From the NCBI GenBank assembly GCA_964515335.1, contig CAZETS010000016.1, positions 5,744 through 69,743 of the forward strand: a DNA stretch of 64,000 nucleotides, read 5' to 3'. Source of the DNA: an uncultured Spirochaetaceae bacterium. GTDB taxonomy: Bacteria > Myxococcota_A > UBA9160 > UBA4427. Positions 9,423-19,217 of this stretch are shown here, piece after piece. The notes beneath the pieces were generated by a model, which did no database searches, was not told the DNA's origin, and worked only from the letters and a program-made list of their open reading frames with translations. The position numbers were made by a program, and so were the translations under genes. How positions within the stretch are numbered: the first letter of the stretch is position 1; every line of letters starts with the position of its first letter.

Positions 9423-10298
9423 TCACTCGACGCGGTAGCGGGCCTGCTCGGCGTCGTAGTCGGTGAAGCCGACGATCTCGCGCAGCGTCTCGAACGGCAG
9501 CAGGCCCGGCGCCGGCTCGCCGTCCCGAAGCGCGGCGAGCGCCTCGTTGATCGCGCGCGTCGCCGCGGACAGCAGCGTCAGGGGATGGGCGGCGATCGCG
9601 TAGCCGAGCTCGGCAAGCCGCTCGGGCGGCAGCACGGGCGTATCACCGCCCTCCACCATGTTGGCCATCTTCGGCCCGGGAATCTCGCGGCAGAGCCGGG
9701 CCATCTCGTCCTCGCTCTGCGGCGCTTCGAAGAAGACGATGTCCGCGCCGAGATCCGCGAAGGCCTGGCTGCGCCACAGCGCCTCGTCGAAGCCGTGGTC
9801 GAAGCGCGCGTCGGTGCGCGCCATCACGAGGATGTCGGCGCCTTCGTCGCGCGCGTCGACAGCGGCCCGCACGCGCGCGCAGGCCTCGTCGCGCGAGACG
9901 ACCTGCTTACCGCGCGTGTGGCCACAGCGCTTCGGCGCCAGCTGGTCTTCGATCATCGCGCACGCGAAGCCCGCCGCCGCGTAGCCACGCACCGTGCGCT
10001 TCGCGTTGACCGCGTTGCCGTAGCCCGTGTCGGCGTCGCCGATGATCGGAATCGAGACCGCCTCGCAGATGTTGCGGCCCTGGTCGAGCATCTCGCCGTA
10101 CGAGATGAGCCCGGTGTCCGGCAGGCCGAGTCGAGCCGCCGAAACCGCGAAGCCGCTCATGAAGCTGAGCCGAAAGCCGGCGCGCTCGATCAGCCGGGCC
10201 GAGAGCGCGTCGAAGCAGCACGGCATCACGAGCAGCTCGTCTGCGTCGAGCAGCGCGCGCAGCTTGGCGGCGGGGCTCGCGGCGGTTCGATCTCCCAT
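9423..10298 (-). CDS. Isocitrate lyase/PEP mutase superfamily enzyme (methylisocitrate lyase / carboxyvinyl-carboxyphosphonate phosphorylmutase-like)
   Basis: Internal ATG at 10298. Contains LLVMPCCFDALSARLIERAGF, IIGDADTGYGN, IEDQLAPKRCGH and ARTDA. Confidence 0.85.
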   Translation of the reverse strand: MGDRTAASPAAKLRALLDADELLVMPCCFDALSARLIERAGFRLSFMSGFAVSAARLGLPDTGLISYGEMLDQGRNICEAVSIPIIGDADTGYGNAVNAKRTVRGYAAAGFACAMIEDQLAPKRCGHTRGKQVVSRDEACARVRAAVDARDEGADILVMARTDARFDHGFDEALWRSQAFADLGADIVFFEAPQSEDEMARLCREIPGPKMANMVEGGDTPVLPPERLAELGYAIAAHPLTLLSAATRAINEALAALRDGEPAPGLLPFETLREIVGFTDYDAEQARYRVE

Positions 10299-10518
10299 GG
10301 CTCGTGCTCCTCCGGCCCGTCGTGGCGATCCAGGCGTGGCCCGAGGGTAGCGAGGGCGCCGGGGCTGCAGCTTGACAGCGCAAAACAGAAGAGGAATCCT
10401 GCCGCCGATGCCGATCCACGCTCTCGCGCACGGGCGCTCCGCACGACCCTCCTCGGGCCGGCCGGGCCGCCTTGCGCTCCGCCGTGAACGAAGCGCGGCA
10501 CGCCTCTCGGTCACGACC

Positions 10519-10569
10519 ATGTCGACGACGACCACGACCGTGACGACGACGACGGAGCTCACGCTCTAG
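10519..10569 (+). CDS. Candidate Thr-rich leader peptide (MSTTTTTVTTTTELTL) of an asd attenuator
   Basis: ATG 10519 to TAG 10567-10569, with 10 of 16 codons Thr (ACG/ACC). An in-frame ATG at 10408 preceded by GAGGA would give a 53-aa version. It sits between a TTGACA -35-like hexamer (10372-10377) and the terminator at 10609-10645. Confidence 0.6.
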   Translation: MSTTTTTVTTTTELTL

Positions 10570-10608
10570 TCGGAAGGCCGCGCCGCCCGCCCTGCTCCAC
10601 CGATCACG

Positions 10609-10645
10609 CGCCCTTCCGACCGACGGAAGGGCGTTTTCGCTTTTC
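10609..10645 (+). terminator. Intrinsic terminator of the asd leader (attenuator)
   Basis: A perfect 10-bp stem, CGCCCTTCCG (10609-10618) with CGGAAGGGCG (10624-10633), has loop ACCGA and is followed by TTTTCGCTTTTC. The competing antiterminator GTCGGAAGG (10569-10577) is exactly complementary to CCTTCCGAC (10612-10620). Confidence 0.7.
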
Positions 10646-10726
10646 GGGGCCGGGTGCGCGCCGAATCCGCTCGGGGGGTCGAGGAGACCCGCCGCGCCGC
10701 ATCGATCAGAATCGAGGAGAATCGAA

Positions 10727-11779
10727 ATGTCCCATCACAGCAATGCGCTCCGCCGCGCGGAGGCGCGAGACGAAGCCAACGGTCTTTCGGTCGCCGTGGT
10801 CGGCGCCACGGGCGTGGTCGGCGAGGTGCTGCTCGACGTGCTCGAGCAACGCGCCCTGCCGGTCGACGAGCTGCGGCTGCTGGCCAGCGAGCGCTCCGCC
10901 GGTGCGATCGTCCGCTGGCAGGGCCGCGACCACCGCGTGCTGGCCGCCGCCCCCGACGCCTTCGAGGGAGTCGACCTGGTGTTCTTCGCCGCAACCGGCG
11001 AGTTGTCCCGCGAACTCGCGCCGGCGGCCGTGCGACGGGGCGCCGTCGTGATCGACAAGTCGAGCACCTGGCGGATGGATGCGGCCGTGCCGCTCGTCGT
11101 GCCCGAGATCAACGCCGAGGCTCTCGACGACCACCGCGGCATCATCGCCTGCCCGAACTGCACCACCATCGGCGTCGCGATGGCGCTCGCCCCGCTCGAG
11201 CGCGTGGCCTCCCTTCGGAAGGTGGTCGTCACCACCCTCCAGGCCGCCTCCGGGGCCGGGCGCGACGGTGTCGAGGTGCTCGATCGCGAGCGCTCGGGAG
11301 ACGACGCGCGCGGGCAGCGGCCGCTCTTCGCCGCCCCACTGCACGACAACGTCGTCCCGCTCTGCGAGGCGTTCGCCGACGACGCCTACTCGACCGAAGA
11401 GCACAAGCTGCGCGCCGAGGTGCGCAAGATCTTGTCACGCCCGAGCCTGCCCGTGAGCGTCACCTGCGTGCGCGTGCCGGTGGCCGTGGGCCACTCGGCC
11501 AGCATCCTGATCGAGAGCGAGCCGGCCCTCGAGCCGGACCGGGCCCGCCGGGCCCTCGAGGCCTTTCCGGGCATCGAGGTGATCGACGACCCCGCCAGCC
11601 TCGCCATGCCCACACCCAGGAGCGTCGCCGGCCGCGACACGATCCAGGTGGGCCGCCTGCGGGCCGAGCACGACGCTCCCGGCCTATGGCTCTGGCAGGT
11701 GGGCGACAACCTCAGGAAGGGCGCGGCCACCAACGCCGTGCAGATCGCGGAGGCGTTGATTCAGCGCAAGCTGCTCTGA
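10727..11779 (+). CDS. asd: Aspartate-semialdehyde dehydrogenase
   Basis: VAVVGATGVVG NAD(P)-binding motif and active-site IACPNCTTI. The ATG is preceded by GAGGAG. Confidence 0.93.
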   Translation: MSHHSNALRRAEARDEANGLSVAVVGATGVVGEVLLDVLEQRALPVDELRLLASERSAGAIVRWQGRDHRVLAAAPDAFEGVDLVFFAATGELSRELAPAAVRRGAVVIDKSSTWRMDAAVPLVVPEINAEALDDHRGIIACPNCTTIGVAMALAPLERVASLRKVVVTTLQAASGAGRDGVEVLDRERSGDDARGQRPLFAAPLHDNVVPLCEAFADDAYSTEEHKLRAEVRKILSRPSLPVSVTCVRVPVAVGHSASILIESEPALEPDRARRALEAFPGIEVIDDPASLAMPTPRSVAGRDTIQVGRLRAEHDAPGLWLWQVGDNLRKGAATNAVQIAEALIQRKLL

Positions 11780-18995: not shown

Positions 18996-19217
18996 TTCGC
19001 CGCTCTAGGATCGCATACACGACCCGGATTGCCATGGGGCGGCTCGAAGGGGACTTTTCACCCCGGAATCCGGCCGGCACCCCGGAAACTGCCAGCCCGG
19101 GGCAGAACGAGAAGGGCCGGACCGGGTGATGACCCGGCCCGGCCCTCTCAGCCTCAGCGCGCTGAAACCCTTCCCAGACGTTTGAAGCGCGCACTCGATC
19201 GGATCGTGGCGACCGGA

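Follow-up and report, generated by a model that had tools for sequence, protein, structure and literature searches.

The window analysed here is a stretch of 64,000 nucleotides (nt) from contig CAZETS010000016.1 of an uncultured Spirochaetaceae bacterium [GenBank assembly GCA_964515335.1], placed by GTDB in Myxococcota_A. It includes an asd gene (10727..11779, plus strand) that predicts an aspartate-semialdehyde dehydrogenase of 350 amino acids (aa) belonging to Pfam PF01118 and PF02774 (identical protein P0001). A Shine-Dalgarno (SD) sequence, GAGGAG, can be read from the sequence at 10714..10719 on the plus strand, ending 7 nt ahead of the asd start codon at 10727, and asd is considered monocistronic because the next gene is convergent. 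Between a TTGACA hexamer at 10372 and the start of asd lies a leader composed of a short open reading frame (ORF) rich in threonine (Thr) codons and two alternative RNA helices, one of which is a predicted intrinsic terminator. This leader is probably a ribosome-mediated transcription attenuator, and its composition, its distribution and its relation to known attenuators are described below.

In reference genomes, the Asd proteins closest to that of the window come from metagenome-assembled genomes (MAGs) of Myxococcota, at ~60% identity, and two of these loci (L001 and L005) have the same layout upstream of asd. Closer relatives, sharing 65-76% identity, came from a large protein collection, and their loci were retrieved with flanks. 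The element is represented by 12 distinct instances, namely the window and L161, L162, L163, L164, L167, L168, L170, L172, L175, L001 and L005; L164 is the same as L165 and L166, and L168 is nearly the same as L169. The hosts of the 11 further loci are all uncultured Myxococcota or "Deltaproteobacteria", and the Asd proteins of element-bearing loci are 62-76% identical to that of the window.

Nine of the loci are syntenic, sharing genes for a helicase and a phosphoenolpyruvate (PEP) mutase (minus strand), then the leader, asd, a DUF4404 gene, a luciferase-like gene and amt. L001, L005 and L175 have other upstream neighbours, indicating that the element is associated with asd itself and not with the surrounding genes. 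Its distribution among asd relatives appears patchy, as it is absent at the asd loci L002-L004, L010, L012, L171, L173 and L174, which are about as divergent and where a promoter or a neighbouring gene is found directly 5′ of asd. The instances receive 48-114 bits from a covariance model derived from their alignment, and nothing else in ~920 kb (the window and the loci) exceeds 23 bits. Searches of the window and ~160 other asd loci with this model and with regular expressions detected no further copy of the element and no other leader ORF abutting a promoter.

All 12 loci share one arrangement at the 5′-end of the leader, which is TTGAC(A/G), 17 nt, NANNNT, 6-8 nt and ATG. In the window, the -35 hexamer TTGACA (10372..10377, plus strand) is followed exactly 17 nt later by the -10 hexamer AATCCT (10395..10400, plus strand), and the spacer is 17 nt long in every locus. 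The only invariant alignment columns in this region are TTGAC (11/11 aligned loci), positions 2 (A) and 6 (T) of the -10 box, one C and the ATG; the flanks of the hexamer and all other positions drift, and L175 also carries TTGACA. This appears to be the conservation signature of a sigma-70-type promoter with a transcript start that coincides with the start codon or adjoins it. The ATG at 10408 is located 7 nt past the -10 box, and since the corresponding gap is 6-8 nt in 12/12 loci, a geometry that predicts a transcription start at the leader ATG, the ORF is most likely leaderless and not SD-driven. The balance of the sequence evidence favours a leader ORF that begins at ATG 10408 on a leaderless mRNA. 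For myxobacteria, there is a proposal of leaderless sigma-A transcripts [PMC12754779].

A first-pass annotation of the window, made from the sequence alone, had recognised the TTGACA hexamer, a Thr-rich ORF at 10519-10569 and an in-frame ATG at 10408 that extends it to 53 aa, and these coordinates are confirmed. However, the GAGGA that it assigned as an SD for ATG 10408 (10391-10395) shares bases with the promoter spacer and -10 box, and is not conserved as an SD in relatives. ATG 10519 was rejected as the start of the leader, as it lacks both an SD and a counterpart in relatives, whereas the ATG at 10408 is conserved. Between the terminator and asd, an interval of 45-90 nt in most cases, no promoter-like site was found in any of the 12 loci, even with a relaxed pattern. 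A further motif, GGTAGCG or TGTAGCG, is conserved 20-110 nt 5′ of the leader -35 hexamer, at 10344-10352 in the window (TACCCT on the minus strand) and at the same position in L161-L172, L173 and L174, and is present even at asd loci that lack the leader. This motif probably represents a -10 box (TAnnnT) for the gene that diverges on the minus strand, the PEP mutase gene in the case of the window.

The leader ORF occupies 10408..10569 on the plus strand and consists of 53 codons and a TAG stop (MPIHALAHGRSARPSSGRPGRLALRRERSAARLSVTTMSTTTTTVTTTTELTL). Its Thr-rich regulatory stretch (10513..10563, plus strand) contains 12 Thr codons, all ACG or ACC, such that Thr accounts for 12 of the final 18 codons. 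The part from ATG 10519 to the TAG at 10567-10569 encodes MSTTTTTVTTTTELTL, in which 10 of 16 codons are for Thr. The main Thr run stops at codon -5 and is followed by a lone Thr at codon -2. When 16-codon stretches in all six frames were compared, this run was the Thr density peak of the 64-kb window, with 11 of 16 codons against 8 in the runner-up. Codons for an amino acid related to the pathway are therefore clustered in the leader, asd being on the Thr pathway.

Although the ORFs differ in length (53, 59, 45, 79, 37, 43, 57, 19, 62, 64, 26 and 62 codons), the span from ATG to stop is divisible by three and free of stops in 12/12 loci. Frame +1 is interrupted in seven loci and frame +2 in three, but frame 0 in none. 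GC content at the third codon position (GC3) is the highest of the three positions in 11/11 leader ORFs tested, and the pooled GC3 is 0.87, or 0.81 when the Thr-rich part is excluded, compared with 0.70 in each of the three phases of the non-coding DNA that follows. Pairwise identity between the leader peptides is only ~30%, suggesting that selection acts on frame and composition and not on the peptide sequence or a protein product. A short and apparently translated ORF thus lies between the putative promoter and the biosynthetic gene, as would be expected for an attenuator.

The Thr bias is concentrated at the 3′-end of the ORF. Over all loci, Thr makes up 40% of the final 20 codons but 8% of the N-terminal parts and 4.5% of the neighbouring proteins. 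All four Thr codons occur, and Thr is the dominant residue in every locus; in L163 the run is replaced by a (Thr-Pro)n repeat, Pro being proline. The recurrent pattern at the end is T-run,x,x,T,x,stop, with the run ending five codons ahead of the stop. The first-pass annotation had asked for this feature to be sought upstream of asd in relatives, and the Thr enrichment is conserved in the 12 loci. The string CACGC(C/T)CTAG, which holds Thr -2, is almost invariant over the 12 loci, and the final sense codon is Pro (CCC) in six of them.

Beyond the ORF, three segments can be distinguished in the window, all on the plus strand. Region 2 (GUCGGAAGG-C-CGCG; 10569..10582) is the 5′ strand of the antiterminator and shares its first base with the end of the stop codon. 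It is followed by a linker (10583..10606) that forms the antiterminator loop and is variable between loci in both length and sequence, and by region 3 (CGCG-C-CCUUCCGAC; 10607..10620), which is common to the antiterminator and the terminator and includes a nearly invariant CCCTTCC. Over the shared anatomy, region 3 is CGCGCCCTTCCGAC. In the terminator hairpin 3:4 (10608..10634), 10608-10618 pairs with 10624-10634 to give a stem of 11 pairs, 8 of them G-C, with a 5-nt loop, and this is followed by TTTTCGCTTTT; the T-tract, TTTTCGCTTTTC, is at 10634..10645, and a comparable T-rich tail is found in 8/12 loci. The hairpin and T-tract had been noted in the first-pass annotation with 10 pairs, one fewer than found here. 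A predicted intrinsic terminator is thus situated between the leader ORF and the gene in the window. It was also said to be rare in this sequence, which holds, as the 15 kb scanned contain only one other terminator-like site. That second site in the scanned part (5-20 kb of the window) is at 19114-19140 on the minus strand, where GGGCCGGGTCATCACCCGGTCCGGCCC is followed by TTCTCGTTCT.

The sequence GTCGGAAGG at 10569-10577 is the exact reverse complement of CCTTCCGAC at 10612-10620. The complementarity, already pointed out in the first-pass annotation, is longer than described there, as it continues past a C.C mismatch with CGCG at 10579-10582 pairing with CGCG at 10607-10610 for a total of 13 pairs. 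In the window, the predicted stability of the 2:3 duplex (-22.6 kcal/mol) is essentially equal to that of the terminator (-22.8 kcal/mol; -21.5 kcal/mol in a separate estimate for the hairpin). With region 3 included in both, the antiterminator and the terminator would be mutually exclusive, as had been proposed, and both helices are conserved across loci.

The sequence TAG TCGGAAGG(C/T)CGCG is identical in 10 of the 12 loci, and L001 and L005 differ from it yet still pair with region 3. In 11/11 loci folded, the isolated segment adopts 2:3 as its structure of minimum energy (-12.5 to -28.7 kcal/mol), and the 2:3 duplex of L175 has a predicted energy of -17.1 kcal/mol. In the alignment, 94.2% of cells are paired in 2:3 compared with at most 47% when slid, and there are 2 compensatory pairs. 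The corresponding values for 3:4 are 87.4%, at most 56% and 1 compensatory pair, and the pairing failures in 3:4 are the two loci without a terminator. L001 has a coordinated insertion in regions 2, 3 and 4 (GCCGGGA / UCCCGGC / CCGGG) that keeps both helices, such that the apical extension of its terminator (UCCCGG...CCGGG) is matched by a new GCCGGGA that opens region 2. This coordinated change appears to be the strongest structural argument for both helices.

A small hairpin around the end of the ORF, CGACGGAGC / GCUCU-A-GUCG (10550..10572, plus strand), is a weak candidate for a 1:2 helix. It is present in the minimum-energy fold, and 76% of cells are paired compared with at most 38% when slid, but its covariation in the alignment is not above that of shuffled controls. 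A four-segment model like that of trp, with 1:2 as an anti-antiterminator, was rejected, as the covariation does not exceed the controls and 1:2 does not block 2:3 in the model.

The linker is C-rich and G-poor, with C at 0.44-0.58 and G at 0.11-0.24 in the syntenic loci, while G and C are balanced in the genome. In composition, the linkers of the window (10583-10606) and of L161-L172 resemble Rho utilisation (rut) sites. This composition may simply keep the loop unstructured, or it may permit loading of Rho.

Transcription from TTGACA-17-AATCCT is predicted to begin at or within 1-2 nt of ATG 10408, and the leaderless 5′-end would be translated, with the first ribosome close behind RNA polymerase. 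When charged tRNA-Thr is plentiful, the ribosome would reach the TAG, where its footprint would mask region 2 (10569-10582). Region 3 would then be free to pair with region 4, forming the terminator, and most transcripts would stop near 10640-10645. When charged tRNA-Thr is scarce, the ribosome would stall in the Thr run, five codons short of the stop, leaving region 2 just exposed. Region 2 could then pair with region 3 before region 4 is made, no terminator would form and transcription would read through into asd. A Pro-stop ending, as found at six loci, could in addition delay release of the peptide and keep the ribosome on region 2, though this is speculative.

The dependence on ribosome position was modelled using a co-transcriptional snapshot, taken after the emergence of region 3 and ahead of that of region 4, and a ribosome footprint of -15 to +13. 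The mean probability of 2:3 pairing is 0.68-0.99 in 12/12 loci with the footprint at codon -5 or -9, or with no ribosome (0.69-0.99 for the stalled positions by themselves), but only 0.00-0.14 with the footprint on the stop codon. Constrained folding thus reproduces the switch that the first-pass annotation had reasoned from the position of the ribosome; in this geometry a stalled ribosome is predicted to favour the antiterminator and a terminating ribosome the terminator. As the default without a ribosome is read-through in the model, the leader would be a three-segment attenuator and not a four-segment attenuator like trp. Equilibrium folding was uninformative as a test of the switch and was replaced by the snapshot.

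The thrL-type logic first proposed for this leader is supported by every computational test applied, whether comparison of loci or folding. The interpretation that the element is a leader-peptide transcription attenuator coupling asd to the supply of charged tRNA-Thr is given a probability of roughly 0.78. Under this interpretation, transcripts would terminate at the hairpin, transcription would start at the leader ATG and asd would respond to Thr or charged tRNA-Thr.

Several points weigh against this interpretation. Four of the 12 loci retain the ORF and the 2:3 helix but are without a canonical terminator. The canonical hairpin and T-tract are found in the other eight; L162 and L170 have a hairpin with no T-tract, and region 4 is missing from L163 and L172. 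The promoter, an in-frame Thr-rich ORF and 2:3 are kept at each of these loci (L163:1887-2000, L172:1655-1904, L162:1896-1935 and L170:376-420), which could be decaying, could use U-tract-independent or Rho-dependent termination, or could reflect a second role of the helix. Covariation, which the first-pass annotation had suggested looking for in both helices, is sparse, with only the 2 compensatory pairs in 2:3 and 1 in 3:4, because the core is nearly invariant; the helices themselves persist. Pro is enriched, forming 15% of the final 20 codons across loci, and a stall at the nearly invariant Thr codon -2 would favour termination in the model. Equilibrium folding favours the terminator in most loci regardless of ribosome position, even with region 2 free, and the switch would therefore have to be kinetic; in classical attenuators too, the local terminator is favoured at equilibrium. 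Finally, the asd product serves the Thr, methionine (Met), lysine (Lys) and diaminopimelate (DAP) branches, and control of asd by Thr alone is physiologically odd, since the gene also feeds Lys, Met and DAP.

Some of these points would fit an attenuator that senses general translation or elongation, or several amino acids (Thr and Pro) and not Thr alone, and that in some lineages may have another output, such as Rho-dependent termination or an effect on mRNA stability or translation. The four loci that keep the ORF and 2:3 without a canonical terminator are consistent with such an output, the C-rich linker offers a possible rut site, and the enrichment of Pro, including its place as last codon in 6/12 loci and the (TP)n repeat of L163, suggests more than one amino acid. 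However, Thr is far dominant in every locus and eight of the 12 loci carry a textbook hairpin and T-tract. The linker is moreover single-stranded in both conformations, so that ribosome position would not obviously gate the loading of Rho, and this explanation is considered unlikely. The promoter, ORF and terminator also form what is formally a complete transcription unit, and the ORF is annotated by gene callers in L161 and L168. The leader might accordingly be an independent small gene, encoding a small protein or a Thr-rich peptide like the ribosomally synthesised and post-translationally modified peptides (RiPPs), or else a small RNA (sRNA), with asd transcribed separately and the complementarity incidental. 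This is very improbable given that the products, 19-79 aa long and ~30% identical, do not represent a conserved protein and no modifying enzymes are encoded nearby. The element is always directly 5′ of asd, including in the non-syntenic contexts, and the lack of a promoter-like site between terminator and asd also argues against separate transcription, while the conserved 2:3 helix that overlaps the terminator would be left without a role.

Alternative helices could in principle be switched by any factor, and (ACG)n is also a nucleotide repeat, which encodes arginine or aspartate in the other frames. The antiterminator could then be controlled by a ligand or a protein, as in a riboswitch, a T-box or a target of a protein that binds ACG-repeat RNA, and the ORF would be a by-product of the repeat. 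If the ORF were untranslated, conservation of the frame in 12/12 loci, from a promoter-anchored ATG to the stop, would be unexpected, and the Thr codons are synonymous and interspersed with other codons. As the linker varies in length and sequence, it leaves no room for the ligand-binding aptamer of a riboswitch, and neither a T-box nor a known riboswitch was matched in Rfam; control of this kind is likewise hardly to be expected. DNA of 70% GC commonly contains long ORFs and GC-rich hairpins, and a loose terminator scan yields no more sites than shuffled sequence, raising the question of whether the leader arose by chance in GC-rich intergenic DNA. The recurrence of the arrangement in 12 loci, the separation of covariance scores (48-114 bits from at most 23 in ~920 kb) and a Thr density unique in the window all contradict this, and chance can be regarded as already refuted by the comparative data.

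No match to Rfam was found in the window at the gathering threshold, and permissive scans of the region and 7 relatives returned only noise (Burkholderia sRNAs with E >= 0.03, and an Hsp70 internal ribosome entry site). The element is therefore not a homologue of the enterobacterial Thr leader, thrL (RF00506 Thr_leader), of a T-box or of a known riboswitch. Nevertheless, thrL of Escherichia coli and other enterobacteria is its closest analogue, sharing a peptide rich in Thr codons, a stop codon adjoining the antiterminator strand, antiterminator and terminator helices that exclude one another and a regulated gene in the aspartate-family pathway, although the two have no homology in sequence or structure. 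thrL is SD-led, has 21 codons with Thr and isoleucine (Ile) and controls thrABC, whereas the asd leader has 19-79 codons, is probably leaderless, is biased to Thr with some Pro and no Ile, and precedes a monocistronic asd. With the E. coli trp attenuator it shares the choice between 2:3 and 3:4 by the position of the ribosome, and the masking of segment 2 by a ribosome at the stop codon. In trp, however, a strong 1:2 hairpin terminates the untranslated leader, while the asd leader has only the weak candidate 1:2 and is predicted to read through without a ribosome, and so differs from trp 'superattenuation'.

Leaderless attenuators have been described in Actinobacteria and Deinococcus, including trpL1, leuL, ilvL and thrL-thrS of Streptomyces lividans and cysS/trpE of Deinococcus deserti. 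These have a start codon at the 5′-end of the transcript, as is predicted here, with no SD and in a GC-rich setting, and some members also lack a U-tract after the hairpin [PMC8079986, PMC4007540]. Their leaders are 10-29 aa with 1-5 regulatory codons, compared with 6-13 Thr codons in the run of the asd leader; they are from other phyla than the Myxococcota-like host of the asd leader, and none has been reported on asd. The S. lividans thrL, which is weak and has 2 Thr, precedes thrS [PMC8079986], 14 leaderless leader peptides are predicted in D. deserti [PMC4007540], and no Thr elements emerged from a survey of Actinobacteria [PMC1262725]. No report linking asd to a leader-peptide attenuator, or of such attenuators in Myxococcota, was found in the openly readable literature, though older surveys beyond it may hold a prediction.

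On the sequence comparisons, the asd element would be a non-homologous addition to the ribosome-mediated attenuators, with asd as an unusual target. A bolder and doubtful proposal is that it represents an independently evolved family specific to Myxococcota, in which an unusually long ORF (19-79 codons) is obligatorily leaderless, loads its first ribosome at +1 and provides Thr-specific control of asd. Under this proposal, the relatives that have lost the terminator (L163, L172, L162 and L170) would use the ORF, 2:3 and C-rich linker that they keep for another output such as Rho-dependent termination, making the family a hybrid with interchangeable termination modules.

The leader also affects the annotation of its neighbours. 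On the minus strand, an ORF at 9423-10562 overlaps the leader and is an over-extended form of the PEP-mutase-family gene, the relatives of which are 286-291 aa. The extension covers ~88 codons through the leader, and the Thr run is read there as VVVVTVVVVV. Gene callers predict the true leader ORF in L161 (1638-1817), a 5′-truncated version in L168 (1705-1857) and L169, and a spurious antisense ORF in L172 (1391-1597). The region is thus an annotation trap, with the PEP-mutase gene over-extended and the leader ORF called by some gene callers and missed by others.

Thr-rich frames were also encountered 5′ of asd in Atopobiaceae/Olsenella (L054, L068, L074 and L079), and were rejected because they arise when the 3′-end of lysC, the aspartokinase gene that precedes asd there, is read out of frame. 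In Olsenella, Thermophilibacter and other Atopobiaceae, lysC is directly 5′ of asd (L050, L062, L066, L070; L068, L079, L080, L026, L071). The gap between lysC and asd in Atopobiaceae contains long perfect palindromes, for example GGGGACAGTCACTTTTGCACG...CGTGCAAAAGTGACTGTCCCC and AATTGGGGACAGTCCCCAATT (~60-150 nt 5′ of asd in L050, L062, L066 and L070), which look like a terminator or a family of repeats resembling repetitive extragenic palindromic (REP) elements.

If the asd leader is an attenuator as proposed, it would represent a well-defined family of cis-regulatory RNA in a phylum for which no amino-acid attenuator was found reported, and the 12 sequences provide a covariance-model seed for its annotation. 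It would also place Thr-specific control at asd, whose product is common to the branches leading to Thr, Met, Lys and DAP, and not at thrA or hom, and leaderless leader-peptide attenuation would reach beyond Actinobacteria and Deinococcus.

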